From positions 24,077 to 88,076 of the forward strand of contig JBGAVP010000006.1 of NCBI GenBank assembly GCA_044228065.1: a stretch of 64,000 bases of DNA. Direction: 5' to 3'. Made by a program: the position numbers and the translations under genes. Each line of letters begins with the position of its first letter. Within the stretch, counting starts at the first letter, position 1. This document shows, one piece after another, positions 1,322 through 57,014 of this stretch. A model generated the notes under the pieces. The model did no database searches and was not told the DNA's origin. It saw only the letters and a program-made list of their open reading frames with translations. This DNA is from Chitinophagales bacterium (GTDB taxonomy: Bacteria > Bacteroidota > Bacteroidia > Chitinophagales > LD1).

Positions 1322-1696
1322 ATGTACGAAACCTCTACCTACAAAAGAAAATCGGCCGATCAAAAGCAAATGCATTATTCCCCTAATTTGCTGAGTACTA
1401 TTAATAATGCTATTGATAATTCTTTAGTTACTACTATAGAGTACGATTCGCGTGAAAAGGGAATTACTGTTCGTGAAATAGAGCCTATGGCTATAGTTTA
1501 CAAAGACCGCAAGCGAAATTTGGTAGGCTGGTGTAGACTTCGTAATGATTATCGCTCTTTCAGATTGGACCGATTGAATTTGGTGAAGCTACACAAGGAT
1601 GATTTTATGAGAAGGCAAGATTTCAATATAGAAGAGTACCAAGATGATCCTAATTCATCTCATGTCCAAGAAGATAACTACAACGAAGAAGATTAA
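1322..1696 (+). CDS. small WYL-domain-like protein
   Basis: 124-aa ORF. The segment ITVREIEPMAIVYKDRKRNLVGWCRLRNDYRSFRLDRL resembles the WYL-domain core (W..c.....R.FRldRi). No HTH is visible. Confidence 0.5.
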   Translation: MYETSTYKRKSADQKQMHYSPNLLSTINNAIDNSLVTTIEYDSREKGITVREIEPMAIVYKDRKRNLVGWCRLRNDYRSFRLDRLNLVKLHKDDFMRRQDFNIEEYQDDPNSSHVQEDNYNEED

Positions 1697-1715
1697 TACC
1701 ATTTTCAGATACAAC

Positions 1716-1747
1716 AAAAAAGGCTAACAACATTGTTAGCCTTTTTT
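1716..1747. terminator. bidirectional rho-independent terminator between convergent genes
   Basis: The GGCTAACA / TGTTAGCC stem (1722-1741) is flanked by an A-run on one side and a T-run on the other. Confidence 0.55.
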
Positions 1748-1765
1748 GTTTTGGGAAAAATTTAA

Positions 1766-3346
1766 TTAATTTCTCTTAATAACAATACTTTTCGAAATCG
1801 AACTTTCCCCACTAGTAAGTACCATTAAATAATTCGCTGAAGCAAGCTCTTGCATTTTTAACTCAAGTGTACTTTCTCCTTTTTGCAATTCTACAACTTT
1901 GCTCCAAACTACACTGCCCTTCAAATCATAGACATTCACTTTCGATTTAAAAGCAGTTTCAGAATTCGTTTTCAGGAAAACAATACCCTTGCTCGGATTA
2001 GGGTACAATTCTATCTGAGCAGGAAAAGTGTGATGATGCTCCTCAATAGAAGTAGGGGCTAAATCTCTTTCATCATAACCCGAACTGATGGGTATGGCTA
2101 GTTTTGCGGCAGTGGCTATGGTAGCTTTTACAACATTGGTCATAAAAGTAAAATTGAGAGTGCCTATACTATCGCCTGGAGTGTGGTAATTTTTATTTCG
2201 AGTATTCGCACCATCAGTGAGCATGAGTGCGCTTTTTCCATTGTCCCAAAAAGAAGCATGATCGCTTCTTCTTAAGTCTGGTGCTATACTTCCATTTTGT
2301 GGCACTTCCAAGGAAGTTATTTTTAATGCTGGTACATACTGCGAAGCTGCGGTTGTGAATTGAGAAATCAAAGAACTAGAAGTTGTGTTTCCACAAACAA
2401 TAAGACTGTTTCCTTTAAAGCTATCTGCTTGCAATTTTTGGTATGCTTGCGGAAAAAGTAAATCAAAGCCTGCTGGTGTGGTTTGTGAATGAAAGGAATC
2501 AGAGTAATAACCTATCATTTCGAAATTTAAAACTCCTTGAATGCTATCATAAGGTTTGATACCGTTTTGAACATAGCGTTGACTACCTACTAAACCAAGT
2601 TCTTCGAAATCAAATCCAATAAAACGAAGTGAGTGTTCAAAATTATATTTTGATAAAATACGAACTGCCTCCAGTATTCCTGCTACTCCAGAACCATTGT
2701 CATCAGCTGCGGGTGCAGTAGCCACTCCATCATAATGTGCATCTATCAGGTAGGTGGTGTTCTCTTCTTTTAATCCAGCTTTTCTACCTAAAATATTTTG
2801 TCCAGATTCAACACCATAAACAAAATTTTGTCTTTCGGTGGTTAGTCTAGCTCTGTTAAAACGCTGTTCAATAGAATCTCTTACCTCATTTAGATGAACA
2901 GTGCCTGCACTAAAATGACGGATGCCTTCAATGAATTTTAAATTACTTTTTAAACGATTGCTATCTACAGCATTTACCATGTCGGCAATATTTACAGGCT
3001 TATTGTCAGAGGCAAGCACTCTAATTTTGGTATCGTATATATTGCCTGTATGCGAAGAGTAATCCCACACAATTGATTTGCTATTTCCAGGATTAATTCC
3101 GGTGCCAAAATCATTGGATAATTCTCCGCTTGGTACTGCTTCAAAATAATCACCACCATCTTTTGAAATTTTTACCCAAACATCACAAGTATTATTTTCA
3201 ATATCTAAAAGAGTATAATTGATAGTTACCTGTTGCGATACCTCATCTACGATTGCAGATTGAATAGATACAGTAGGAGGGGTATTCTGAGCATCAGAAA
3301 AGAAAGTAGTTAGACAAAGACTAATTAGCGTAGCTATTTTTTTCAT
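1766..3346 (-). CDS. M28-family aminopeptidase with T9SS C-terminal sorting domain
   Basis: Has a signal peptide and the M28 zinc-ligand region (IDAHYDGV...DDNGSGVAGILEAVRIL...FEELGLVGS). The C-terminus (ELYPNPSKGIVFLK...) is a type A Por/T9SS sorting domain. Confidence 0.8.
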   Translation of the reverse strand: MKKIATLISLCLTTFFSDAQNTPPTVSIQSAIVDEVSQQVTINYTLLDIENNTCDVWVKISKDGGDYFEAVPSGELSNDFGTGINPGNSKSIVWDYSSHTGNIYDTKIRVLASDNKPVNIADMVNAVDSNRLKSNLKFIEGIRHFSAGTVHLNEVRDSIEQRFNRARLTTERQNFVYGVESGQNILGRKAGLKEENTTYLIDAHYDGVATAPAADDNGSGVAGILEAVRILSKYNFEHSLRFIGFDFEELGLVGSQRYVQNGIKPYDSIQGVLNFEMIGYYSDSFHSQTTPAGFDLLFPQAYQKLQADSFKGNSLIVCGNTTSSSLISQFTTAASQYVPALKITSLEVPQNGSIAPDLRRSDHASFWDNGKSALMLTDGANTRNKNYHTPGDSIGTLNFTFMTNVVKATIATAAKLAIPISSGYDERDLAPTSIEEHHHTFPAQIELYPNPSKGIVFLKTNSETAFKSKVNVYDLKGSVVWSKVVELQKGESTLELKMQELASANYLMVLTSGESSISKSIVIKRN

Positions 3347-3441
3347 GATAGATAATTTATTGTACTAATGTACTTTAAAAAATCGTATCATGAAATTTAG
3401 AAAAATGGAAATACACTTCTAAAATTAATAGCACAGAATTG

Positions 3442-5361
3442 TTACATCCCTGTTACTATAAATTCTGTTCTTCTATTCTTAGCTTTTCCTTCGTTGGTGT
3501 TGTTATCTGCAATAGGTTTAGCAGCAGCATATCCTTTGTAGCTAAGCCTTTCAGCCGATACTCCTTTTGAAATAAGATAATCAAACACCGCTTTAGCTCT
3601 GTTTTCAGAAAGCATTTGGTTGTCTTTTAGTAATCCTGAATTATCAGTATGTCCGCCTATTTCAATTTTTAGATTTGGATTTTTAGTGAGCATATCTTGA
3701 AGTGTTGTCAATTCAGTTTTTGACTCTTCTTTTAATTCAAATTTGTTGGATTCGAAAAACACATTATTTAAAATAACAGCTTCTCCAATCTTAACCTTTT
3801 TCAAACCTATCTCCATCACATACGGTTGCCCATCTTGTCTATCTTTTAAAGAAAAATTAGCCGAATAAAACAAATATCCTTCTTTGGAAATCTGACATGC
3901 ATAGTTTTTGCCAGAAGGTAATGTGAGCAAGCATTCTCCTGTGAGCTGGTCTGATGATGAAGTAGTATATAATTTAGAAATTTCTACATCAAAAATCTGA
4001 ACATTTGCTTTGAGTGGTGCTTTGGTATTTGCATCAAAAACTTTGCCTTTAAAGTAAGTAACGTATTCAGGCTTATTGACTGCATCCATTTCAAATTTGT
4101 ATAAATCTAAACCACCTGCACCACCTACTCTTTCTGATGCAAAGTATGCAGTCTTGCCATCCGCAGCTATGGCTATTCCTAACTCATCACCATTGCTATT
4201 AATGGGGTAGCCTAAGTTTTCAGGCTTACTCCAGTGACCATTTGCATCTTTTCTTGATACAAAAAAATCTAGCTTACCAAAACCAGGATGACCGTCTGAT
4301 GAGAAGTATAAAGTCTTACCATCAGGATGTATGAACGGCCGCTCTTCATTAAACTGGGTATTGATTTCGCTACCTAAATTTTGGGGTTCGCTCCATGAAT
4401 AATCATTTTGTAAGTAACTCACCCAAATATCTAAACTACCCTTACCACCAGGTCTGTTGCTCACAAAGAAAAGCGAACGACCATCAGCCGAAATGCAAGG
4501 CTGAGTGTCCTTTCCAGGCTTATTGATTCGTATGTTCATGTGGTTGGGTCTATCCCAAGTATCACCCAACCTTTTGGTAAAATAGATATCACAATCCCCT
4601 TCACTATCGGGTCTGCGGCTCGATGTAAAAAATAAATATTTACCGCTTTGAGAAATACAAGTAGCGCCTTCTATGTACTCATCAGTTGAGATAGGTCTAT
4701 CTACCAAAGCCGCGGGTCCCCATTTGCTGTTGAGTTGTTCACTCATCCAAATATTTTCATCGGCAGCTCGTCCCATGTGTTCCAATCGTGTGAAATAAAT
4801 GTAACGCTCATCGGCAGTTACAGTAGGCATGTATTCATCATCTGGAGTATTGACTCCATCACCCAAACTCATGGGCTGAAACTTGCGAGGGCTCTTCACA
4901 GCCTCCACTGCATAGTCACAACTCTTTATCAAATTATCAATACTATTTTGATCTACCTGCGAAGTGGTGCCCTTTGTTTTAGCTTCAGTTAGTGCGGCTT
5001 TAGCTTTAGCATAATCACCTGCGTAGAAGTACGCCATGCCAATGTTGTAATCTAATTTTGGAGAAAAATCTGATTTGAGTTGCTTCACCTTTTCAAAAGC
5101 CAGTGCAGCTTCCTTATACTTTTCTGTATACTCCAATTCTACCAAACCCAATACCCAATAGGCATCTACAAAGCGAGGCTCTTCTTTAATGGCTTCATTC
5201 AAAGCTGTCTCTGCTGTTGCTACTTTTGCAAAAGCGTATGCATTGTTTCCTTCATCAAAAAGGTCTTTGGCTTTGCGTTTAGCATGGTCGTAAGTAATTC
5301 CTTGTGCAAAAATTTGTGCAAGGGAAAAAGATAGCAGTAATAGAACCAAAGATTTTTTCAT
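3442..5361 (-). CDS. OmpA-family protein with TPR, PD40/TolB-like propeller repeats and a C-terminal OmpA peptidoglycan-binding domain
   Basis: Has a signal peptide and repeated PD40-like units (ADERYIYFT, SGKYLFFTSSR, ADGRSLFFVSNR, DGKTLYFSSD, DGKTAYFASER). The C-terminal OmpA_C motif is IGGHTDNSG...LSENRAKAV...NRRTEF. Confidence 0.8.
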   Translation of the reverse strand: MKKSLVLLLLSFSLAQIFAQGITYDHAKRKAKDLFDEGNNAYAFAKVATAETALNEAIKEEPRFVDAYWVLGLVELEYTEKYKEAALAFEKVKQLKSDFSPKLDYNIGMAYFYAGDYAKAKAALTEAKTKGTTSQVDQNSIDNLIKSCDYAVEAVKSPRKFQPMSLGDGVNTPDDEYMPTVTADERYIYFTRLEHMGRAADENIWMSEQLNSKWGPAALVDRPISTDEYIEGATCISQSGKYLFFTSSRRPDSEGDCDIYFTKRLGDTWDRPNHMNIRINKPGKDTQPCISADGRSLFFVSNRPGGKGSLDIWVSYLQNDYSWSEPQNLGSEINTQFNEERPFIHPDGKTLYFSSDGHPGFGKLDFFVSRKDANGHWSKPENLGYPINSNGDELGIAIAADGKTAYFASERVGGAGGLDLYKFEMDAVNKPEYVTYFKGKVFDANTKAPLKANVQIFDVEISKLYTTSSSDQLTGECLLTLPSGKNYACQISKEGYLFYSANFSLKDRQDGQPYVMEIGLKKVKIGEAVILNNVFFESNKFELKEESKTELTTLQDMLTKNPNLKIEIGGHTDNSGLLKDNQMLSENRAKAVFDYLISKGVSAERLSYKGYAAAKPIADNNTNEGKAKNRRTEFIVTGM

Positions 5362-39878: not shown

Positions 39879-40370
39879 TTAAAGCAATAATAATTCGCCT
39901 AGTCTAAAGAAAACCTCTTCTACCCCTAAATCTTCTTTGGCACTACAAAAGAAATCAGGTTTTGTTGGCATCATTTTCTTTACATTTTCGGTTTCTACTG
40001 CATTTAGTAAATCACATTTATTAGCAGCAATTACTAGAGGTACACCAGGTAATTTACTTTTAAGAAACGCAAGATCTTCATTCATATTTAAGAATGAAGG
40101 TGGAGCTGATATGTCTACTACATAAATGATTCCACTAGAGCCCAGAAAATAAGATTGGGGTGTATTTTGCTGACTGCTTTCACCTGCCAAATCCCAAATA
40201 ATTAAGTTTAGAATATTATCCTTAATGGTGATTTGTTTTTTATCAATTCTAACTCCAATGGTAGAAATGTATTGCTCAGAAAACCTATGATGTACATAAC
40301 GATTTACCATAGACGTTTTTCCCACATTCACATTTCCTACTAGGATTATTTTCTTACTTTGTTCAGTCAT
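39879..40370 (-). CDS. Ras-superfamily (Rab-like) small GTPase
   Basis: G1 GNVNVGKTS, a switch I YISTIGV identical to the Rab consensus, G3 WDLAGE, G4 NKCD, G5 CSAK. 163 aa. Confidence 0.8.
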   Translation of the reverse strand: MTEQSKKIILVGNVNVGKTSMVNRYVHHRFSEQYISTIGVRIDKKQITIKDNILNLIIWDLAGESSQQNTPQSYFLGSSGIIYVVDISAPPSFLNMNEDLAFLKSKLPGVPLVIAANKCDLLNAVETENVKKMMPTKPDFFCSAKEDLGVEEVFFRLGELLLL

Positions 40371-41196
40371 GATTTATGAAATGATTTTCTAGATTTAATG
40401 AGATTTGCTTTTGCACCTCGCTCGTTACATTTTTTATACCCTCTTTTAAATAATTAGTTACAAAGGCATCTGCTTTTTCTTGTAATTTAGATTTAAAGTC
40501 TGCTCCAGCTATACCAGAAACTACAAATGCCATTTTAAAAGTGTAGTAATCTAACAATAAAATTTTATTGTTTTCATATTCTATGGTGCTCAATGTCTGG
40601 TTTTGCTTATGAAAAGCATCTTCTACAAACGATTTGATGGCAGTAAGCATTCCCGCTATCATATCTTGATCTGATAAATCATTTTTAGAATAGCTGCCTA
40701 AAAGCAAACCAGAATCGTTTTGGATTACAAAAATTTCTTCGATACTGGCTTTGTTTAACTCGCTTAAAATAATGGAGGAACTATCTGCTCCAGAGAAAAA
40801 GGCTTTTACTCTGTGAATCCAAATATCTAAATCAAAAGTGGTGGAAATTTGATTATCTATAGATTCCGTTAACTTCTCGAGTTCAGCTTGTAGATATTTC
40901 TTGATAAGTTTGCCGATTATAGGATAGAGCGAATTGATAACTTCATCTTGAGAGTCTTTTAACTCGCGTTGAATAGCATCTTTCAGTTCTCCTTTAAACT
41001 CTAAACTAAAATTTTTCTTGAGGTAGTCAATTTTAGCTTGTGCAAAGGGTTCTACTTTGTTTCCGAAATTTTCTGGCACTAATAATTCATCCTTCAATCG
41101 CTCCAATTCCGTTTCGATAGAAAGACTTAATTTACGGTCATCTTCTAGTAAGATAGCTCGTAAAGTTTCTAATGCTTGTTCTTTTTCGGCAAACAT
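40363..41196 (-). CDS. coiled-coil protein with a C-terminal Roadblock/LC7 (MglB-like) domain
   Basis: The C-terminal half (IEEIFVIQNDSGLLLGSYS...MIAGMLTAIKSFVEDAF...ILLLDYYTFKMAFVVSG) follows the Roadblock strand/helix pattern. Its stop overlaps the GTPase start by 8 nt. Confidence 0.5.
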   Translation of the reverse strand: MFAEKEQALETLRAILLEDDRKLSLSIETELERLKDELLVPENFGNKVEPFAQAKIDYLKKNFSLEFKGELKDAIQRELKDSQDEVINSLYPIIGKLIKKYLQAELEKLTESIDNQISTTFDLDIWIHRVKAFFSGADSSSIILSELNKASIEEIFVIQNDSGLLLGSYSKNDLSDQDMIAGMLTAIKSFVEDAFHKQNQTLSTIEYENNKILLLDYYTFKMAFVVSGIAGADFKSKLQEKADAFVTNYLKEGIKNVTSEVQKQISLNLENHFINHD

Positions 41197-41204
41197 GAAA
41201 TTGT

Positions 41205-41537
41205 TTAAGAAGAGATTTTTTCTCCTATGTCCATGAGCATTTTACCCAATTTCTTGCGGTCTAATTTTTTCTCATCAATCTTAGCTAACTCTTCCAAGAG
41301 TTTTTGCTGATTGCTTTCCATTTTAGCATTTAGTTTTTTATCTAAATCATCTATGGCTTTGCGAACTGCCGTAAATTCTTTGTCTATAGCATTTAGATTG
41401 GTGTTTATATAATCGCGTAAATCATTAAATTCTTTATCATACTGGCGCATGTTTTGCCCGAAGATGATTTCTTTGATGGCATCAATTTTTGCAATTTCAT
41501 TTGCTGCAGGATCTGCGGATTTGTTTTCTTTTCCCAT
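41205..41537 (-). CDS. small coiled-coil protein
   Basis: 110-aa charged, heptad-like ORF immediately upstream of the Roadblock-like gene, 8 nt away. Confidence 0.5.
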   Translation of the reverse strand: MGKENKSADPAANEIAKIDAIKEIIFGQNMRQYDKEFNDLRDYINTNLNAIDKEFTAVRKAIDDLDKKLNAKMESNQQKLLEELAKIDEKKLDRKKLGKMLMDIGEKISS

Positions 41538-44289: not shown

Positions 44290-44484
44290 ATGTACAAAGG
44301 AAAAGTAAAGTTTTTTAACTCAACAAAAGGGTTTGGATTTATTTGCGACAGCAACACAGGAAAAGACATTTTCGTTCACTCTTCAGGTCTTAGAGAAGAC
44401 ATCCGTGAAGGAGATGAAGTGACTTTCGAAGTAGAAGATGGTAAAAAAGGACCAAACGCTGTAGAAGTTAAAATCGCTAGATAA
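44290..44484 (+). CDS. cold-shock protein (CspA family)
   Basis: GKVKFFNSTKGFGFI (RNP1) and DIFVHSS (RNP2). 64 aa. Confidence 0.9.
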   Translation: MYKGKVKFFNSTKGFGFICDSNTGKDIFVHSSGLREDIREGDEVTFEVEDGKKGPNAVEVKIAR

Positions 44485-44506
44485 TTTATTCATAAATTAT
44501 TTCACT

Positions 44507-44537
44507 AAAATGCCACTCCAAAAGGGTGGCATTTTTA
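44507..44537 (+). terminator. rho-independent terminator after the csp gene
   Basis: AAAATGCCAC-TCCAAAAG-GGTGGCATTTTT. Confidence 0.65.
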
Positions 44538-44812: not shown

Positions 44813-47800
44813 ATGGCAACAACAAAAGGACCAGAGACACCTGTAACAAAGACAGAGGATTTAAATTTAATAATGAATCGTTTTTCAGGAAAAGTTGAAG
44901 TGTTGAATCCAAGCGGTTCGGGAGTGATTTCTGCTGCAGGTTATTTTTTAGATGTATATGCCAGCACAATTAGTATCACTTTTGATAAAGCCTATTCTCC
45001 AATAGGTAACAGTATCATGCTTTCAGATGATGGTAGTTTCACATTCGATGCTACAGCTACTAATTTATCATCAGCCTCTGTAACTTTTGTAGTGCGATCA
45101 GCTAATGGTTTACCTGCTACTATTGTCTCTGGCAATGCTACCGTGAATAACATTTTCAAAAAAGGCGGTGCGTTTGTATTGCAAGTAAAGCCATACAGTC
45201 CTATGAATTTGGGTAGTGGAACATCTACACCTTCTAATAAAGTTTTAGTAAAAGGCAAAGCTATATATGATGATGGAGAGGTAGTAAAAGAAAAAAGGAT
45301 TGTTCTTTATGCTAAAAATGGGGATACTACTGATACCACGGTGCTTACACTTGAAACAGTAAAAACTCAACCCAATGGAGAGTTTAAAGTATTGGTAGCA
45401 AACACAAAGTTTAGAGATGCGTTTGCTGTTTTGGGTGATAGAGATAATAGTAATACTTGTGTAATCCCATTGGATAATGCTGGGAAGTTTAACAATAAAT
45501 TGATTTTAGTATTTCAAAATAAAATGGAAAGTGATGAGGATTGCGCTTGTACTGATAAAACGCCTCGACTACCCGATGCAGATGATTTGATAAGTCCTGA
45601 AAATAAGTATTCACAAGATATAGGAGGGAATTGTGTGAATTTTACAACACCTAACAGAAGTCTAGAAGAGTTTACTTTTTCATCTATTGTACGTACTACA
45701 GACCCGCGTGGCGAATACACTGCTATGACCAAAGAAGCCATAGCAGAAGAATGGGATGGAAATACTGCTAATACTGCAAATTTTAAAAAGTATTTAGATA
45801 AAACCTTGCGTCAGTCGCTCACCAAAAAAAATCAGTTAGAGTGGGATCATCCTGACAAAAAATTTTCCATTTATCAAGCACTCACAATTGCACATGGACA
45901 TGTACTCACTTTTAAACAAGTTTTTAAATCTGATGGTTATAGTATGGGCGATTTGGTTTATTCGCTTCCGCTTGCTCCTGGGCAAAAAAAATTGATTGTG
46001 ACCTACGATTGGAATAGAGTAGATGAAGCAACTAAAATAGATGATTTAACAGCTGAAGATAGACTAACTGCGAGCATTAGTCGTGACAGAGATATTGATG
46101 AAATTATTTCTGGTTCACTTAGTGAAGATGTAAAAGGAGGGAGTAAAAGCAAAACAAGTGGATGGAGTGTAGGTGGTGGAGTTTCTGCGCCTGCTGTTGG
46201 GCCTGTTTCGGTTTCGGTGAGTGGCGGGTATAATTCTGGTAAAGCGTCTTCTGAGTCTTGGCAGCAGTCTTCCAAAGACATGACCTCTAGTCTGCATAAT
46301 AAATTGAAAGATTCGACACAGCAAAGTTCTTCGATGTTGCGCAGTCAAAGGAATACGGTAATAGCTACTGCCAAACAAGGTGAGTCATATTCAGTTACCT
46401 CAGAAGTAGTTGCCAATCACAATCATTGCCATGCCGTTACTATGCAATATTTTCAAGTTTTGCGACATATTGTTGTAGAACAAGAATTGAGCGATGTACA
46501 AGAGTGTTTGTTTGTTCCACTAACCATAGCACCTTTTGATGCAAAAAAGGTTTTGCGTTGGAGACAATCACTTCAGAATAATTTGCGGTTAAATCGTTTT
46601 TCAAAACTAGGGAAAGAATTGCAAAAGGGCTTTGATTCCATGGAACGAATAGATAAAAATTACGTAAACTTTGATGTGCCTCCAGTAGTATCAGACAGTA
46701 AGATTCGAGAAGTTTATGGAAGTTTTAAGTTGCGTTTAAATTTAAATCGTCCACAAGATAAATCCATAGCTGATTCTCAGTTTGGGCCAGCATTTCAACA
46801 AGCCCTTCAAAGTGATAATTTCATGTCTGAAATGGTGCAGCGTTCACTGATGAATTACCAAGATGTGAATGAAGCAAATTGGACTAGTTACAGTCGTTAT
46901 TTTTCTTCGTTCAGTGTGGAGTCTATCAAGTCACTTTTTACTGGAAAATCGCAAATAGAGCGCGACACTATTTTTTATGAACAAATAGCACCTGAAATTG
47001 CTGAGAATTATGTCCAAAAATTGATGCTAACAGGTATGGCACAAAACATAAATTTTGTAGGGTTTTCAATAGATGGGAAATGGAAGAAAGGGGAAGATTT
47101 AAACATAAGGATTAATACCATTGTCCCTAAAAATGGAACTTCAATAGTTTTGAAACGTAGTGATATCCCTAATCTTCAGATTATTACTAAACTAAATGAG
47201 CCACATATAGATTCACAAGTTACTTCTGGGTATATCAATTATAGAACATCACATTATAATGGGGTTTTTACTAATTATATTTCAGGAAGTACACGTTCTA
47301 TAGATCCTCAAATAGGAGCTTTTGTTTACACTCCTTTGAAACCTGAAGAATCGTTTGATTTTAAGAAAGAAGATATTAGGCTCTCAACCCAATTGCTAGA
47401 TCACATGAATAATGAGAATTTAGAATATTACCATCATGTGATTTGGTATCATGGGATTACTCCAGATAGGCGCTATATGATGTTAGATAGAATTCAATTA
47501 GATAGCCCCGATTTTACACAAGTATATGCTGAACGCGGGGTATTGGGCAGAAGTGTGGCATCTTTGGTAGAAAATAGAATTATTGCGTTGGTTGGAAACT
47601 GTTTGGTGTTTCCTGTAGCTGCTGGCTATAACCTAGACCCAACTTATAAACTAAAAGATAGTGACACAGCCGATGAAAGTGGCATGTCTTTTAATTCGTT
47701 GTTAGAGCATTACCAACCTATTTCTGAAACTGATGGGAATTACAAACCTAGTTATAGAATTAGTATTCCTACTCCAGGTGTGTTTGCTGAAGCAGTGATG

Positions 47801-48598
47801 GGAGCTTGTAATTCTTGTGAAAAAGTAGATGACAGCCGTTTTTGGCAATGGGAAGACCACCCGATAGATGAGCCAACTGCTATCAATCCAATAGATACTA
47901 GCAGTCGTTATCAAAATCCTTTAAATACTCAAGGAAGAGATTTTTCTACACCTGTTATTAACATTCAAAATTCACCAGCAGCACCTGACCCTACAAATAT
48001 GGCTGGGGTATTTGATTTACTCGGAAAGTCAGGGACATTTAAAGATATTACTGGCACTGATGCTACCAATGCTAATGCCATGGGAGCATTGAATGCTGCA
48101 AATAGTCTTGCTAAAGCTAATGGAGATAATGCTACCAAATTAGCATCGGAAGCATTGAAAGAGGGGCTTTTTAGTCAAAACAAGATGGCTACCATGAAAA
48201 ATGCTACCAAAAATATGGCTAAAGGAGAAGATTATATTGATAGAAATTGGCCAGCAAAAGATTTTCCTGAAAAGAATAAGGAACTAAAAGAAAAATTATT
48301 CAATTCCGTATTAGGCGGAGACCCTCTGGGAGGTAAGAAAGACCCAAGTAAAAACGGTGGTAGCACCGATGACAACAATAGTGGTGGTAGTACTGATGAT
48401 GAGAATGGCGGAAGTAGTGGAGATACTGGTACCAGTAATGCAGCACCAGGGCAAAAATCATTAGCAGAAATTTTATCTGGAATGCAAGGTGAATTGGATG
48501 ATTTCAGAAATCGGTATGTACATGATATGGGAGATTACATTGCAGGTATTGATACTAGTGGTTTTCCAAACGATTCTAATCCCACTAATGTAGTATAA
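44813..48598 (+). CDS. 1261-aa protein of unknown family (no export signal), first gene of the candidate protease operon
   Basis: Long uninterrupted ORF with an N-terminal Ig/CarboxypepD_reg-like beta-sandwich region, a Gly/Ser-rich central segment, a His/Cys cluster (NHNHCH) and an acidic low-complexity C-terminal tail. No signal peptide, TM helix or T9SS CTD. Confidence 0.8.
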   Translation: MATTKGPETPVTKTEDLNLIMNRFSGKVEVLNPSGSGVISAAGYFLDVYASTISITFDKAYSPIGNSIMLSDDGSFTFDATATNLSSASVTFVVRSANGLPATIVSGNATVNNIFKKGGAFVLQVKPYSPMNLGSGTSTPSNKVLVKGKAIYDDGEVVKEKRIVLYAKNGDTTDTTVLTLETVKTQPNGEFKVLVANTKFRDAFAVLGDRDNSNTCVIPLDNAGKFNNKLILVFQNKMESDEDCACTDKTPRLPDADDLISPENKYSQDIGGNCVNFTTPNRSLEEFTFSSIVRTTDPRGEYTAMTKEAIAEEWDGNTANTANFKKYLDKTLRQSLTKKNQLEWDHPDKKFSIYQALTIAHGHVLTFKQVFKSDGYSMGDLVYSLPLAPGQKKLIVTYDWNRVDEATKIDDLTAEDRLTASISRDRDIDEIISGSLSEDVKGGSKSKTSGWSVGGGVSAPAVGPVSVSVSGGYNSGKASSESWQQSSKDMTSSLHNKLKDSTQQSSSMLRSQRNTVIATAKQGESYSVTSEVVANHNHCHAVTMQYFQVLRHIVVEQELSDVQECLFVPLTIAPFDAKKVLRWRQSLQNNLRLNRFSKLGKELQKGFDSMERIDKNYVNFDVPPVVSDSKIREVYGSFKLRLNLNRPQDKSIADSQFGPAFQQALQSDNFMSEMVQRSLMNYQDVNEANWTSYSRYFSSFSVESIKSLFTGKSQIERDTIFYEQIAPEIAENYVQKLMLTGMAQNINFVGFSIDGKWKKGEDLNIRINTIVPKNGTSIVLKRSDIPNLQIITKLNEPHIDSQVTSGYINYRTSHYNGVFTNYISGSTRSIDPQIGAFVYTPLKPEESFDFKKEDIRLSTQLLDHMNNENLEYYHHVIWYHGITPDRRYMMLDRIQLDSPDFTQVYAERGVLGRSVASLVENRIIALVGNCLVFPVAAGYNLDPTYKLKDSDTADESGMSFNSLLEHYQPISETDGNYKPSYRISIPTPGVFAEAVMGACNSCEKVDDSRFWQWEDHPIDEPTAINPIDTSSRYQNPLNTQGRDFSTPVINIQNSPAAPDPTNMAGVFDLLGKSGTFKDITGTDATNANAMGALNAANSLAKANGDNATKLASEALKEGLFSQNKMATMKNATKNMAKGEDYIDRNWPAKDFPEKNKELKEKLFNSVLGGDPLGGKKDPSKNGGSTDDNNSGGSTDDENGGSSGDTGTSNAAPGQKSLAEILSGMQGELDDFRNRYVHDMGDYIAGIDTSGFPNDSNPTNVV

Positions 48599-48601
48599 TC
48601 T

Positions 48602-49561
48602 ATGGCAGCAAACGATAATTTTTTCAATTGGGGGTATGCTATGTGTTTGGCAAAAAACGAAAAATTGCCCAATGCGATTCCCTCTGCACAGCGCATGGCG
48701 TATTATCTTAGTAATATATCAACTTCTGGAGTTGTTCTAAGAGATTACCATGAAGTAACTACTCTTACCGAATCTGAGGTTAACATTAAAACATTAATTG
48801 AGGGAATTATTAATTTGGCGATCACAGCTAAAGCAGGCGATGTAGTTACATTGTATTTCGCTATGCATGGCTACGTAGGAGAGGGAAGCACTCACTACAA
48901 AACACCCGATACAAATTTCTTACTTTTTGATGGTTTGCGATTTAGCGAACGTGAATTGTTTTTTCTTTTGAAACTGTTTGAAACTGATGTGCGAGTAAAT
49001 GTAATAATGGATGTATGCAACAGTGGTACATGGCTTACAGGCTTTCAGCGCGATTCATGTAAAGAAGAACGAGAATTTGATTTTTTTGTAAAATCATTGA
49101 AAGAAAAAGAGTCTGCATTAGCCTTTCAATTAAACCTGTTGAAACCTTATTATTTGGATAAACCATTGGCAGCTACTGTGAATGTTTTTGGTGCTATTGG
49201 TGATTTTTTAAATATAAATGATACTGTTTGTTTGGAGTATTACATTACAAAACTAAAGCTAAAGAAAGGACATTTAAATTTTACGAATCAAGAATTAATA
49301 AAGGAATTAAGAGCGGTAGCATTTGATGTAGTGCTTAGTTTGCCCACAGATAAACCTGGAAGAAATCTTTGGCATACTTACTATAAAGATTATTCTGGGT
49401 CAGTACTAAAATGTATCATTCCCGATATAATGTCTGTTCCAAATTTTGATAATACCAATCCTTATCACTTGCAAGCAATGCAGGCAATTATGCCCAAACT
49501 AACACAACTAGGAGAAAATCATTATAAGTATAAACACAATAATGTTTTTGCTTTAAACTAA
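48602..49561 (+). CDS. caspase/metacaspase-like (clan CD) cysteine protease, paralog 1
   Basis: VTLYFAMHG (His89, nt 48866-48868) and VIMDVCNSG (Cys139, nt 49016-49018) match the metacaspase pattern hfSGHG ... iiDsCHSG with about 50-aa spacing. The preceding block NWGYAMCLAKN...AIPSAQRMAYYL resembles the caspase beta1/helix1. Confidence 0.65.
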   Translation: MAANDNFFNWGYAMCLAKNEKLPNAIPSAQRMAYYLSNISTSGVVLRDYHEVTTLTESEVNIKTLIEGIINLAITAKAGDVVTLYFAMHGYVGEGSTHYKTPDTNFLLFDGLRFSERELFFLLKLFETDVRVNVIMDVCNSGTWLTGFQRDSCKEEREFDFFVKSLKEKESALAFQLNLLKPYYLDKPLAATVNVFGAIGDFLNINDTVCLEYYITKLKLKKGHLNFTNQELIKELRAVAFDVVLSLPTDKPGRNLWHTYYKDYSGSVLKCIIPDIMSVPNFDNTNPYHLQAMQAIMPKLTQLGENHYKYKHNNVFALN

Positions 49562-49570
49562 ATAACAAAG

Positions 49571-50539
49571 ATGGCTGAAGGAGGACAATTTTACAACTGG
49601 GGTTATGGGCTGTGTATAGCTATTAATGATGGTTTACCCAATGCTATACCTTCGGCAAATAATATGGCCAATATGCTATGGAAGCGAAAATCTGGTAGTT
49701 TGGGATTGCAAAGTGATTACTATTCGGTTACTACACTTTATGATGCTGCAGCTACTTATGAAAATGTAATTACTGCCATTTTAGATTTAGCTGCAAAAAG
49801 TATTGCTGGTGATATTGTAACCATTTATTTTGGGTTGCATGGAGAAGCGAGAAGAGGCGAAAATAGAGTTGAAAATTTCAACCGACTTCTTTTGCATGAT
49901 TATAAATTCTTTACTGAAGATGAGTTGTATGCTTTGCTTCGTTTGTTCTCTGAAGATGTACGAGTAGTGGTAGTGATGGATATTTGCCAAAGTGGAACCT
50001 GGTTGAATGAGCTTACTATCAAAGATGATTGTGTTTTGGAAAAAGTATGTAACAGTATGATTAATAAATCGGTGAGTTATAATTGTAGCAAGAGTTTTCA
50101 AAATACGATGGTAAAATTAAAGCCCATGATACTTGCTAGCCCATTGGTATCCACGGTGACTATAATAGGTGCCATTTCTGACTCGATTAATATTTCTGAT
50201 TCCGATTGTTTTGCTAGCTTCTTAACTCAAACTTGGAGTAAAGACGGAAACTTGTGGAAAGATATGGAAAGCCTAATTAGGCGAGTGAGAGAGGTAGCAT
50301 TTGAAAGAATAGTAGATAAGCCTGTGGAAGTAAGTGGTGGTTGTACTCGGTGGAAAATGTATTATGTTGACTATTGTGAACTTGTGTTGAAATGTCCAAT
50401 ATCAGAGGATTACGCCCCTAGTTATGATTACAATAACCAACACCATCAGGATGCTATGCGTCATTTTTTACCAACTATAAATTTTCTTGGACCACACCAC
50501 GATAAATATAGTAGCTACAAGGCCTTTTGTGTAAACTAA
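49571..50539 (+). CDS. caspase/metacaspase-like (clan CD) cysteine protease, paralog 2
   Basis: It aligns with paralogs 1 and 3 over its full length. VTIYFGLHG and VVVMDICQSGTW are conserved. Confidence 0.65.
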   Translation: MAEGGQFYNWGYGLCIAINDGLPNAIPSANNMANMLWKRKSGSLGLQSDYYSVTTLYDAAATYENVITAILDLAAKSIAGDIVTIYFGLHGEARRGENRVENFNRLLLHDYKFFTEDELYALLRLFSEDVRVVVVMDICQSGTWLNELTIKDDCVLEKVCNSMINKSVSYNCSKSFQNTMVKLKPMILASPLVSTVTIIGAISDSINISDSDCFASFLTQTWSKDGNLWKDMESLIRRVREVAFERIVDKPVEVSGGCTRWKMYYVDYCELVLKCPISEDYAPSYDYNNQHHQDAMRHFLPTINFLGPHHDKYSSYKAFCVN

Positions 50540-50551
50540 AGAAGTAGAAAA

Positions 50552-51523
50552 ATGGAAAACGAGTTTAACTTTTACAATTGGGGCTACGGAATGTGTGTGG
50601 CTATTAATGATGGTTTAGATAATGCTATCCCTTCTGCTAACTATTTCAACTATATGCTTTCCCAAAGAGCATCTGGCACATTTGGAGCCATGAGTGATTA
50701 TGCAGAAATTACTAATTTATTCGATGATAATGCTACTTTTGAAAAAGTGTTGTTAGGATTTATTGACCTTGCAATAAAAGCCAAAGCTGGTGATATTGTA
50801 ACTGTTTATTTTGCATTGCATGGTTCTTCTTCTCAAACTTCTAATTCCAGCAGACGAAGCAACAAATTATCTTTAAAAAACACTTACTTGACTGAGGAGG
50901 AGCTTTATCTATTACTCAAGCTCTTTAGGCCAGATGTGCGCGTAGTATTGGTTATGGATATTTGCCAGAGCGGTTCTTGGATTGACACTCCCAATTTAGA
51001 AAGTTGTAAGGAATACGAGGCTTATCAATCATTAAAGAAAAAAGTAGATAGGTTTTGCAGTAAAGCTACTTATCAAACTATCTTAAATTTATACACCGCT
51101 TTTTTACAAACAAAATTAGATGCTACCATAACTGTAATTGGGGCTATAAATGATAGATTAGGTGTAAATGATGATATTTGCTTTGCTACATTTCTAAGAG
51201 CAGTTAGCAGTAAACGTGGTAATTTGAATCTGAATATGGATAATTTGATAAAGGAATTGAGGAGGAGAGCTGTACTAATTATTCAAAATATTGATGGGGA
51301 TTATTGCTATAGAGTGACTGATGATATTAATTTATGGAAGGCTTACTATGCATCTTATTCTGAAATAATATTAAACTGTCCAATGGAATTTAAAGATAGC
51401 CCTTCTTTCCACTCTCAAAATCAACATCACCAAGAGGCGATGCTTCACTTTTTACCAACTGTAAATTTTATAGGTCCTAACCACGAAAAGTATTTTGATA
51501 AAAATGCTTTCTGTGTGAATTGA
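50552..51523 (+). CDS. caspase/metacaspase-like (clan CD) cysteine protease, paralog 3
   Basis: It aligns with paralogs 1 and 2 over its full length. VTVYFALHG and VLVMDICQSGSW are conserved. It shares the C-terminal motif QHHQ.AM.HFLPT.NF.GP.H.KY....AFCVN with paralog 2. Confidence 0.65.
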   Translation: MENEFNFYNWGYGMCVAINDGLDNAIPSANYFNYMLSQRASGTFGAMSDYAEITNLFDDNATFEKVLLGFIDLAIKAKAGDIVTVYFALHGSSSQTSNSSRRSNKLSLKNTYLTEEELYLLLKLFRPDVRVVLVMDICQSGSWIDTPNLESCKEYEAYQSLKKKVDRFCSKATYQTILNLYTAFLQTKLDATITVIGAINDRLGVNDDICFATFLRAVSSKRGNLNLNMDNLIKELRRRAVLIIQNIDGDYCYRVTDDINLWKAYYASYSEIILNCPMEFKDSPSFHSQNQHHQEAMLHFLPTVNFIGPNHEKYFDKNAFCVN

Positions 51524-51560: not shown

Positions 51561-52229
51561 TTACATTCTCAAAGAAAACTTCAATCCAATAGAAGTTTGA
51601 GGGGCGAGGAAAGTAGTATTGAACTGAATCTCTGGTTCAATATGCAAAGAAAGTTTATCAGTCATATCGTAATGGAATAGATGTCCATCTACAGCAGCAT
51701 CTACTAAATTTAATCCATACCACAATGCCAAACATATTGCTGAAATATCTAGGTATCGTTTATAATAATTACGATAGGTTATGAGCGTTTCAGATTGAGT
51801 GATTCCATTGTAAGAACCTACTGTTGCAGGGTTGCCATCTACTTGTAGACGGTAAGCATTTCTTGCTCCGTAAAAGTTTCTCCCCGTATAATATACTGCA
51901 CAACCTATCCCTGCAAAACCAGCATAAACTATAGGGATTTTCCAATATTTTTTATTGTAAGCTTGCCCTAAACCTGGTAATATAGCAGACATCCAAACTG
52001 CTTTAGAAGCACTATGCTTTTTTTCTTTCTTATTTTTTGAAAGAGTAGTGTCTATACTGCCTGCCGTGAAAGAGTTGGGAATAGAATCGGTCTTATTAAT
52101 CGTAAAAGATAAAGTATCCTTTTTGGGAATTTCTAGAATAGAATCAGTTGTAATAGACTGCGCTTGCACAAATATTGCAACTATTAAAAATGCCAACAGC
52201 ATCCCAATTCTTTTGCTGATTTCAGCCAT
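51561..52229 (-). CDS. DUF5683-domain membrane protein
   Basis: The core AVWMSAILPGLGQAYNKKYWKIPIVYAGFAG is typical of DUF5683, downstream of parB as in many Bacteroidota. The ATG at 52229 gives a signal-like N-terminus. The ORF track extends to a TTG at 52292. Confidence 0.7.
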   Translation of the reverse strand: MAEISKRIGMLLAFLIVAIFVQAQSITTDSILEIPKKDTLSFTINKTDSIPNSFTAGSIDTTLSKNKKEKKHSASKAVWMSAILPGLGQAYNKKYWKIPIVYAGFAGIGCAVYYTGRNFYGARNAYRLQVDGNPATVGSYNGITQSETLITYRNYYKRYLDISAICLALWYGLNLVDAAVDGHLFHYDMTDKLSLHIEPEIQFNTTFLAPQTSIGLKFSLRM

Positions 52230-52292
52230 TCTCTTATAATTTCTTGTAAGAATACTCTTGTAGTTTAAGGAAAATGTGATGTTGTATTTCAA

Positions 52293-54956: not shown

Positions 54957-57014
54957 TTATTTAGTAATAACCAATTGTTTAGTGGCAGTTTTTTCGCCAT
55001 TTACAATTTTCACAAAATAGCTTCCATTAGCTAAATCGCTCATATTGTATGTTTTGTTGAAATTGCCATTAGCTGTTTCATTGTAGCTTTTTACTTCAGA
55101 ACCTAAAATGTTGTAAACTCTTACAGTAAAATCACCTTTTAATCCATCAGCTTTGATATTTAAAATACCAGAAGTTGGGTTTGGAACAAAAGAAACATTT
55201 GTAATATCAGCAACATCATTGATTCCAACACCTTGTACACCTTTAATGCTTACGATTTTACAAGTTTGTGTAGATTGTCCACCAGAAACGACCGTTAAAC
55301 AAACATTGTATGAAGTATCTTTTCCTGTACTAGGGAATGCGTAATTTACAGTTTGACCAATAGCAGTGTCACCATTTCCAAAATTCCAATAGAAACTTGC
55401 AGGGCTGTTGTTAGCGCTACCAGTGAACTTAACACTTTGCTCTGCTTTTACTGTTCCGAAACCTGGAGTTCTAGAGAAATCACAAGTTAATAGATTAGCA
55501 CCGTGTCCGAAGTTAACACGCATAAATGGAACTAAGCTATTATCCAAAACGAAACCATTGGTATTGCTAGCAGGAGTTGTAGTGGATGTAATATCAATTG
55601 CTCCTACACCACCGTTAGCTACAGCTGAAGTTACATACAAGATATTGCTGTCAGTACTTACATACTCTAAAGAAACTAAATAAATACCTATTGGTAATAC
55701 GCTATTTCCAGATTTAGGGTCAATGCGCATATTTACAGTTTTGAAAGCATTAGTCACTAATTCAGATGCTAATACTTTTCTTACAGATGTAGAACATACA
55801 TATTGTACCGTCAATACACCAGCACCAATTGAGTTTTCATCTACTTTATAAACTACTGCTTTTACTTGGCTATTAGGTACTGTACTGATAGTAAAACCAG
55901 CACCAGCTCCCCAGAATGCAGTTGCAACAGAAGTTACAGTATCAGGATTTACTACTTCAATTAAAGAACCCGCTCTGATAGTTAAACCTTGAGAAGCTCT
56001 GTAAAGAGATACTCCTCCTAAATTTGCACCTGTTGTAACAGAATAAATAGAGTCAGTAACATTAAAAGTTAAGGTATCTGAATTGTTGTAAGGGGTAAAG
56101 TCTACTGAATCTGAAGATGAATTTACTATAGCAGTATATGCTGCTATGCCAGTAGGAAGATACGCTCCATTGATAGAAACAAATGTATCTGCTCCAGCAG
56201 CTAATGCCAAAGGAGTAGAATTAGCAGTAAATACAGTGGCTGCTGCTTTTTTTACATTTACAGTAGCTTTTGTGTTTGGTTGTGTTGTTTTACCGTCATT
56301 TAAAATGCCAGCACCAAAACTAATAGAATCTTGTTGTGATAACGGATACGCAGCATAAGCATTTCCTAATGTTCCACTTAATGCTAATGCATTTGTTTGA
56401 ACTAAATCATTGTTTGGAGATTCAATTAAGTTGATATCATCTATCATCCAATAGTAGTAATCACCTTTAAATGTAAAACGAATCCATACTTTTGGTTGAT
56501 TAGCAGCTACAGAAGAGATATCTAAGCTAATAGCAGTAGGGTTAGCAGAAGCATCATTTACATCTACATCTGTATGAATAGTATCGCTTTTCCAAGTTAA
56601 ACTATCTTTACTGTATGATACAATATGAGTTGCTTGAAACTGACGCATAGAGCTACTAAAAGTCAGTTTTACTTTTGAATACCCAGTACAGCTAATAGCG
56701 GAAGAGGTTAAACTAGCATTGTGAGGTGCAGCTGCAGTACCAGTACCACCTGCGGTAGCACCCTCATCATAGAAATCAGAGTCAAAAAGCATAAATCCAT
56801 TTGCTTTTGTAGCAGAATTGATAACATTACCACTAGAGTAACCACCTTGGGTTCCCGTAGTAGAATAGGTCCAAATTGCAGCAGTAGGGATACCGCTATT
56901 TGTCCAACCAGCAGGAATACCGCCAGCAAAATCTTGGCTGTAAATAACAGCCTGTGCTTGTAATTGAATCCATCCGGACGCCAAAACAAGGGCAAGTGTA
57001 AAGAGTTTTTTCAT
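54957..57014 (-). CDS. T9SS-secreted surface protein (choice-of-anchor-J-like N-domain, PKD domain, T9SS CTD)
   Basis: Has a signal peptide, IYSQDFAGGIPAGWTN, a PKD-like FYWNFGNGDTAIGQTVNYAF and the CTD FVPNPTSGILNIKA...GSYFVKIVNGEK. Confidence 0.75.
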   Translation of the reverse strand: MKKLFTLALVLASGWIQLQAQAVIYSQDFAGGIPAGWTNSGIPTAAIWTYSTTGTQGGYSSGNVINSATKANGFMLFDSDFYDEGATAGGTGTAAAPHNASLTSSAISCTGYSKVKLTFSSSMRQFQATHIVSYSKDSLTWKSDTIHTDVDVNDASANPTAISLDISSVAANQPKVWIRFTFKGDYYYWMIDDINLIESPNNDLVQTNALALSGTLGNAYAAYPLSQQDSISFGAGILNDGKTTQPNTKATVNVKKAAATVFTANSTPLALAAGADTFVSINGAYLPTGIAAYTAIVNSSSDSVDFTPYNNSDTLTFNVTDSIYSVTTGANLGGVSLYRASQGLTIRAGSLIEVVNPDTVTSVATAFWGAGAGFTISTVPNSQVKAVVYKVDENSIGAGVLTVQYVCSTSVRKVLASELVTNAFKTVNMRIDPKSGNSVLPIGIYLVSLEYVSTDSNILYVTSAVANGGVGAIDITSTTTPASNTNGFVLDNSLVPFMRVNFGHGANLLTCDFSRTPGFGTVKAEQSVKFTGSANNSPASFYWNFGNGDTAIGQTVNYAFPSTGKDTSYNVCLTVVSGGQSTQTCKIVSIKGVQGVGINDVADITNVSFVPNPTSGILNIKADGLKGDFTVRVYNILGSEVKSYNETANGNFNKTYNMSDLANGSYFVKIVNGEKTATKQLVITK

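Follow-up and report, generated by a model that had tools for sequence, protein, structure and literature searches.

Three tandem genes for caspase-like proteins lie at the tail of a four-gene operon in a 64,000-nucleotide stretch of DNA from a Chitinophagales bacterium (GenBank assembly GCA_044228065.1, contig JBGAVP010000006.1, positions 24,077 to 88,076 of the forward strand; the whole stretch is called the window here, and coordinates refer to it unless a related locus is named). The first gene of the operon encodes a giant protein of 1261 amino acids (aa), termed here the carrier. The main finding, missed by an earlier note on the three genes, is that the caspase-like genes are not autonomous: they form a conserved module attached to the carrier gene. 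Judged by sequence and predicted structure, the trio of open reading frames (ORFs) belongs, as fast-evolving members with intact active sites, to a rare caspase-fold subfamily (clan CD, C14-like), and its likeliest role is that of a detachable enzymatic component in a bacterial device for killing or lysis.

All four genes are on the plus strand. The carrier gene, a short form in the sense discussed below, occupies 44813..48598 in the ORF list, and paralog 1 (319 aa, 48602..49561) starts 3 nucleotides (nt) past its stop codon; paralog 2 (322 aa, 49571..50539) and paralog 3 (323 aa, 50552..51523) follow, with 9 and 12 nt between the caspase-like ORFs. The His and Cys codons of the presumed dyad are at 48866-48868 (His89) and 49016-49018 (Cys139) in paralog 1, at 49838-49840 (His90) and 49985-49987 (Cys139) in paralog 2, and at 50819-50821 (His90) and 50963-50965 (Cys138) in paralog 3. 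The 5' boundary of the cassette is a strong terminator-like hairpin with a 12-bp stem (44507..44535, plus strand), which lies 3' of a cold-shock gene and ~280 nt 5' of the carrier ATG at 44813. The gene 3' of paralog 3 is convergent (51561-52292, minus strand), and the ORF list holds no small ORF inside the caspase array. The four ORFs (starts 44813, 48602, 49571 and 50552) share one reading frame, with a stop codon plus 1-4 codons between them, an arrangement expected by chance in ~1/27 of cases. A fusion by stop-codon read-through was considered and rejected, the common frame being probably a coincidence; the frames differ in the related loci L001 and L004.

Is this gene order particular to the window? 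A carrier homologue is directly followed by one to four caspase-like genes in six independent loci. These are the window (three caspase-like genes), L001 (four, with a carrier 77% identical to that of the window; L002 and L003 have the same arrangement in other samples), L004 (two, carrier 57% identical), L005 (two, carrier 34% identical, the second caspase-like protein passing the Pfam PF00656 threshold), L011 (one) and L014 (two). The last two loci came from a search of the best 80 of ~500 carrier loci with a hidden Markov model of the caspase family. Each of the six loci has different flanking genes, and the linkage therefore belongs to the cassette as such.

The earlier note had described three diverged tandem paralogs, quoting blocks of sequence from each, and had stated that all three retain a caspase-type dyad. 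Both statements hold: there are exactly three such plus-strand ORFs, the quoted blocks recur verbatim, and each protein has His-Gly and Asp-x-Cys-x-Ser-Gly. Over their full length the paralogs are 38-47% identical, and 91 columns of the alignment are invariant, among them H89, G90, D137, C139, S141, G142 and W144. A protein from another sample is 47% identical to paralog 2 (E 3e-86). His-Gly, Asp-x-Cys and Gly142 are invariant in 18/18 aligned relatives, a set of 10 and a set of 8 that are more distant. This relative and the invariance of the same residues in distant members indicate that the similarity within the trio reflects homology and not chance. Library scans agree with the note that the proteins are single-domain, with no sensor or repeat domain.

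Three independent lines support the caspase fold and dyad, which the earlier note had proposed from motif order. One is the comparison of a profile of the trio with the PDB sequences, which retrieves GSU0716 (3bij, E 8e-10) and Arabidopsis metacaspase-4 (AtMC4, E 3e-3); in both profile alignments His-Gly is matched with sGHG, and D-x-C-x-S-G with DSCHSG. Another is the set of single-sequence matches, which are below threshold and all of caspase type: NCBIfam NF047832 (EACC1-associated caspase; best E 8.5e-5, with 22.1, 15.5 and 13 bits against a cut-off of 140), Pfam PF01650 Peptidase_C13 (paralog 3, 18.9 bits against 22.8) and a PADLOC caspase model (one weak match, E 1.9e-3). None of the window paralogs matches Pfam PF00656 Peptidase_C14 (threshold 21.4 bits) at E<=1; carrier-linked relatives do exceed that threshold (L005b 42.1, L014b 39 and L011 26.2 bits). 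The third line is an AlphaFold2 (AF2) model of paralog 1, built from a six-sequence alignment (mean predicted local distance difference test, pLDDT, 69.7; predicted template-modelling score, pTM, 0.73). In the model His89-Gly90 comes just after the strand 81-87 and Cys139 just after the strand 131-137, with the His before the Cys. The 33 best Foldseek matches in the PDB are solely GSU0716, metacaspases, MALT1 and caspases, at probability 0.85-1.00 (1.00 for the best 24) and with best template-modelling (TM) scores of 0.4-0.54. The EACC1-associated type is defined by at least 140 bits and an EACC1-type partner; the trio scores well under that, and its neighbours in the window are the giant protein, an acyl-CoA dehydrogenase, the csp gene and ParAB. 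Membership in a known defence system was also rejected, as PADLOC gave the weak caspase match alone.

Motifs at the two ends of the proteins differ in what they represent. The N-terminal motif, regarded in the earlier note as family-specific, corresponds in the model to the first beta strand of the caspase fold (residues 11-17) and the start of its helix 1, a helix that spans residues 25-37. At the C-terminal end, where the note had seen a conserved His-rich motif, a conserved signature does exist, P-x-[FY]-D-x-x-N-x-x-H ... [LM]-P-x5-G-x(8-11)-F, and it is present in distant full-length members; the richness in His is not family-wide. Only N286, H289, P298, G304 and F316 are conserved there throughout the family, and the P...G...F part is kept in a more divergent 'type B' set as well. 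Within the core, the relatives all have the Asp at Cys-2 (Asp137). In metacaspases and paracaspases, the Asp at this position lines the S1 pocket. The Arg/Lys-specific metacaspase/orthocaspase type (C14B) is marked by an acidic S1 pocket, made of this Asp and another in the C-x-N-D region after strand 1, and by a calcium-binding Asp cluster. By our own reading of the alignment, the position of the second S1 Asp varies between Ser, Gly and Asp, and there is no conserved D-E/D-D cluster after the His. As neither the second S1 Asp nor a calcium-binding cluster is evident, no cleavage specificity is proposed.

The subfamily is rare. Searched exhaustively with HMMER, 1.84 billion cluster representatives (proteins) gave 953 matches to the caspase profile at E<=1e-3, of which ~12-15 are full length; the remaining matches cover the caspase core alone and represent generic C14 proteins. 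Word-indexed searches, one with paralog 2 and one with a profile of 10 sequences, returned 2 and 3 proteins, respectively, and missed the L001 paralogs, so rarity was judged from the HMMER search. No match came from metagenome scans, whether run with the family alignment or with P0130. Genomic context covers full-length subfamily members other than P0126, P0128, P0130, P0132, P0133 and P0147.

What is the carrier? Its homologues number 120 in the protein collection (1200-2190 aa), and a search pattern built on the motif VANHNHCHA finds ~500 loci in species-representative genomes, one genome being scanned per species. The family is reported from Myxococcota, Legionella, Streptomyces, Acidobacteriota and Bacteroidota, and its database name is 'hypothetical protein'. 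The carrier core has no match in Pfam, PADLOC or the PDB sequences, and NCBIfam matches only an N-terminal beta-sandwich; PDB sequence searches with the single carrier sequence and with a profile gave low-complexity artefacts alone (e.g. huntingtin polyQ). No signal peptide is present in the 21 N-termini of homologues that were inspected. Literature searches on carrier locus tags, or on a caspase/aerolysin-like system, gave no specific result.

An AF2 model of residues 140-1180, built from a 72-sequence alignment (pLDDT 74), predicts beta sandwiches followed by four strands of ~30 residues around a low-confidence, Gly/Ser-rich hydrophobic loop, then a mixed alpha/beta core with Cys/His motifs and a helix of ~60 residues. 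A low-complexity linker and a short tail complete the predicted layout of the carrier. The loop is Gly-rich and hydrophobic, with a central G-P and Ser-rich flanks, and is kept in the 40 homologues inspected. In the window it corresponds to residues 449-473 (46157..46231, plus strand; SGWSVGGGVSAPAVGPVSVSVSGGY) and may be a membrane-inserting hairpin. Among the Foldseek matches to the model, aerolysin and lysenin pores have the best E-values, though their probability is only 0.06-0.33 and TM is <0.1. Near-invariant motifs of the core are HGH (~360-365), VANHNHCHA (533-541; 46409..46435, plus strand, a possible metal site) and GACNSCEK followed by RFWxWEE.P (~990-1000). In the alignment around VANHNHCHA, positions N396, H401 and T404 are invariant and N398, H399 and C400 nearly so. 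From their sequence, these Cys/His-rich motifs suggest metal sites or disulfides.

Several observations bear on where carriers occur. Two carrier paralogs stand in tandem at many loci, namely L027, L031, L050, L059, L070, L072, L074, L080, L083, L085 and L086, mainly in Actinomycetota, Acidobacteriota and Chloroflexota; typically a protein of ~1,600-1,860 aa whose C-terminal extension is long stands beside one of ~1,400-1,430 aa whose extension is short, which suggests a heteromeric pair. Carriers are found in four Legionella species (L025, L043, L056 and L062), including L. pneumophila subsp. fraseri. The carrier at L071 is in a metagenome-assembled genome labelled as the archaeon Nitrosopumilus sp. 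and may reflect binning contamination or transfer. A phage origin of the carrier was considered and rejected, as there was one distant match among 50,697 phage records and one among 2.9 million viral contigs; fold matches to the carrier in BFVD were to an Ig-like domain only. The only carrier matches in the viral collections are L089 (MT835996.1, 1930-3522), an unverified 20-kb 'Bacteriophage sp.' faecal contig, at 26% identity, and L090 (IMGVR_UViG_3300014205_009237, 1462-4452), an IMG/VR contig, at 41% identity.

The position held by the caspase-like genes acquires meaning from the C-terminal ends of other carriers. Most carriers are 1,500-2,100 aa long, with 350-650 additional residues at the C-terminus. 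A Pfam scan of 79 such extensions, from species-representative genomes, detected 18 different families. The most frequent is Peptidase_C70 (20/79), followed by Amidase_2 and PETase-like domains (6/79 each), Peptidase_C39_2 (4/79), and GH25, Tyrosinase and PG_binding_1 (2/79 each); M15_4, M23, DUF2272, OmpA, muramidase, Amidase_6 and M12B are each found in 1/79. Clostripain C11 (clan CD) and pesticin are fused in other carriers, and a plasmid copy of the carrier is annotated as OmpA-family. The fused domains lie after residue ~1300 in P0022, P0017 and P0049. C11 is the only fused clan-CD example among carriers; an hhalign comparison of the caspase profile with a Myxococcus carrier, its 370-aa C-terminal extension included, gave no match.

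Short-form carriers, mostly from Bacteroidota, share the conserved segment, the helix and the low-complexity linker with the longer ones and stop there; separate genes follow within a few to ~40 nt. These split partners include an Amidase_2 protein (L034), a tyrosinase (L020, 10385-11353; PF00264, E 7e-24, with homologues at L017 and L036 recognized by sequence only), the caspase-like genes and uncharacterized proteins of 430-444 aa. Tyrosinase is an unusual enzyme for a toxin-like slot, and it occurs in both split and fused forms. Proteins of 365-444 aa without a Pfam family follow short carriers at L030 (14113-16752), L006 (12014-13345), L039 (6415-7713) and L068 (13855-14952); the partner genes at L030 are a tandem pair of diverged paralogs. 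Such Pfam-less partners may be further head modules. The extreme C-terminal tails of short carriers vary with the type of partner. No docking motif common to the caspases and the other split partners (tyrosinase, amidase) was found.

The caspase-like genes have evolved faster than the carrier to which they are attached. Window paralogs have positional orthologues in L001: paralog 1 pairs with L1a (45% identity), paralog 2 with L1b (58%) and paralog 3 with the duplicated pair L1c/L1d (40-43%). The first duplications are therefore older than the divergence of the window lineage from that of L001. Paralog 3 is in addition 60% identical to P0002. Nonsynonymous divergence (dN) between caspase orthologues is 0.38-0.60 compared with 0.18 for the carrier, and identity is 45-58% compared with 77%; the caspases have thus diverged 2-3 times more, and their copy number ranges from 1 to 4. 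The ratio of nonsynonymous to synonymous divergence (dN/dS) of the caspases is ~0.16-0.3, a bounded figure as dS is saturated. With the orthologues in a second genome, this supports the proposal that these are old paralogs kept under selection. In a rough neighbour-joining tree the caspase-linked carriers form two separate clades; the L011 caspase is of the window type despite these two clades, which points to shuffling or exchange of the module.

What role could the trio have? The fold and dyad, the operon structure, the conserved linkage and the modular C-terminal slot are the observations on which a mechanism can be built. The caspase genes fill the slot that in most relatives holds a fused enzyme and so, by parsimony, would have the same role. 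The reading we favour, with a little less than even confidence, is that the caspases are trans-encoded enzyme heads, or payloads, of a polymorphic-toxin-like carrier. The carrier body would insert into a membrane and serve as a carrier or translocator. The caspase-like proteins would bind its partner-specific C-terminal tail, perhaps via their C-terminal P...G...F motif, and would be delivered as protease payloads, with several diverged copies possibly widening the arsenal. Such delivery would parallel the Tox-Caspase domains of polymorphic toxins, and also the two kinds of effector, cargo and fused, known from other delivery systems.

Several points weigh against this payload reading. Delivery of a payload that is not covalently attached is mechanistically more demanding than delivery of a fused one, and neither the carrier nor the caspases have a recognized (Pfam) trafficking domain or a signal peptide. 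Docking, secretion route and target of the trio are putative. No carrier fused to a C14-type domain is present among the top 150 matches to the caspase profile, and no immunity-like gene 3' of the array is present in the ORF list of the window. Where C70 is fused it often precedes a second enzyme, and a processing role fits this at least as well as a payload role does. The caspase model itself is of moderate confidence, the loop after the Cys having pLDDT <50, and the aerolysin-like reading of the carrier body, with its low-probability matches, is a lead and not a result.

Do the caspases ride on the carrier, or do they switch it on? They might cleave it, e.g. in the C-terminal helix, linker or tail, and convert it to a membrane-inserting, pore-forming state, with the paralogs as alternative triggers or sensors. 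We consider this close rival possible, though on the unlikely side. Aerolysin-type toxins are activated by removal of a C-terminal peptide, and the predicted long beta hairpins of the carrier around the Gly-rich loop, together with the best E-values to aerolysin and lysenin, would suit such a process. One or more caspase-like proteases beside a pore former is also the architecture of bacterial gasdermin loci (Johnson et al.; 10.1101/2021.06.07.447441). The commonest fused module, C70, is a cysteine protease, and its place upstream of a second enzyme is that expected of a releasing peptidase; fast evolution of the caspases is as expected of sensors in an arms race. Yet a protease is absent from many carriers (amidase-only, lysozyme-only, tyrosinase, lipase-like, OmpA), and proteolysis is thus not a general requirement of the carrier family. 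Moreover, the caspases have no sensor or repeat domain, a cleavage site in the carrier is hypothetical, the carrier body is not a gasdermin and its match to aerolysin is weak, and PADLOC has no model for either component beyond the one weak caspase match.

Two other readings fit poorly. That the trio consists of autonomous orthocaspase-type proteases of cell death, stress or turnover, merely co-transcribed with an unrelated large protein, would be in keeping with how common single-domain prokaryotic C14 proteins without partners are (most of the 953 matches are core-only) and with GSU0716, the nearest solved relative, being a stand-alone protein. The linkage makes this improbable: every subfamily member with readable context is directly 3' of a carrier, in six loci whose carriers range down to 33-34% identity, the intergenic gaps are 3-12 nt, and even the divergent type-B partners share the P...G...F signature. 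Alternatively, the array could consist of non-catalytic immunity or adaptor proteins that neutralize or chaperone the giant protein. The genes do lie directly 3' of a polymorphic-toxin-like gene, and their tandem duplication and fast evolution recall the tandem immunity arrays typical of such loci (PMC3482391). This reading is very improbable, chiefly owing to the dyad and Gly142, invariant in 18/18 relatives, which would not be maintained if catalysis were lost. The window carrier, in addition, has no C-terminal toxin domain to be neutralized, and bona fide enzymes (Amidase_2, tyrosinase) take the same position in other short forms.

Pairs of a caspase-fold protease and a membrane-disrupting protein underlie pyroptosis and bacterial gasdermin defence. 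If the present pairing is true, it represents a second, unrelated combination of protease and membrane disruptor, and such logic has evolved more than once. It would also provide a function for a carrier family of ~500 loci that has no Pfam family, solved structure or informative annotation. On a broader and speculative view, doubtful as it stands, the carriers may constitute a widespread class of giant (1,200-2,600 aa) membrane-inserting proteins without signal peptides and with interchangeable heads, one branch of which uses free-standing caspase arrays that either ride on or arm a pore former, independently of gasdermins. The fused and split forms together make up a natural map of usable heads: peptidoglycan hydrolases, lipase-like enzymes, tyrosinase, papain-like and caspase-like proteases. 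The system can be tested as an antibacterial or lysis device, and new protease specificities might be found in it. Taken by themselves, the caspase paralogs are of moderate interest; of more interest are the carrier family and the pairing of caspases with a putative pore former.

Other genes of the window and of the related loci can be noted. The cold-shock gene just upstream of the cassette is CspA-like (64 aa) and lies, together with the terminator-like hairpin that follows it, within 44290-44535. At 39879-41537, on the minus strand, three overlapping or abutting genes encode a Ras/Rab-like small GTPase (163 aa), a protein of 277 aa and a coiled-coil-like protein of 110 aa. A secreted 685-aa protein is encoded at 54957-57014, minus strand, and its C-terminus resembles a type IX secretion sorting domain; Por_Secre_tail proteins are also found near the cassette in L001, L004, L005 and L006. 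The sorting-domain protein and the Por_Secre_tail neighbours are consistent with a Bacteroidota host at ~35% guanine-plus-cytosine.

How does the cassette compare with known systems? The trio resembles metacaspases, orthocaspases and GSU0716, which are its best sequence and fold matches, in the order strand-His-Gly ... strand-Asp-x-Cys-x-Ser-Gly and in the Asp at Cys-2. It differs in that the window proteins score below the PF00656 and PF01650 gathering thresholds, with TM scores of 0.4-0.5, and in that the second S1 Asp and the calcium-binding Asp cluster are not evident in the alignment of the family; the trio also has a subfamily C-terminal motif and an obligate gene partnership. As for the carrier, its predicted long beta hairpins flanking a Ser/Gly-rich insertion loop are like those of aerolysin-family toxins, and, like bacteriocins of the colicin/pesticin type, its family has no signal peptide and joins a conserved body to a variable C-terminal killing domain, one homologue having a pesticin-type muramidase. 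However, at probability 0.06-0.33 the fold match lacks significance, the carrier is several times larger than those toxins, and neither receptor-binding or Tol/Ton-box features nor lysis or immunity genes were found.

In bacterial gasdermin systems, cleavage of a C-terminal inhibitory peptide triggers pores, the His/Cys of the protease is needed for toxicity and there is sometimes more than one protease per locus (Johnson et al.; 10.1101/2021.06.07.447441). The carrier, in contrast, is ~5 times longer and has no gasdermin match in Pfam, the PDB sequences, the fold matches listed or PADLOC; the proteases of the window have no TPR, LRR, WD40 or NACHT sensor domains, and related carriers bear non-protease enzymes instead. 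The carrier family compares more directly with polymorphic toxins, as a conserved body is combined with diverse C-terminal enzymes, the window member being a short form. In those toxins, caspase-like domains are catalogued both as C-terminal toxins and as releasing peptidases, some of them in arrays, and Bacteroidetes have them too (Zhang, de Souza, Anantharaman, Iyer and Aravind, 2012; PMC3482391). Both systems have caspase-fold His/Cys peptidases on large conserved bodies with swappable C-terminal enzymes. The window carrier differs from polymorphic toxins in that scans detect no RHS, PAAR, TpsA, LXG, MuF or similar domains, no signal peptide and no Pfam family, and no immunity gene is evident 3' of the window array. 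The caspases differ from Tox-Caspase domains in being free-standing genes, one to four per locus, and not fused domains. Caspase domains in polymorphic toxins are thus already known; what is new is that free-standing, tandemly diversified caspase-fold modules would serve a giant, unannotated family of polymorphic carriers.

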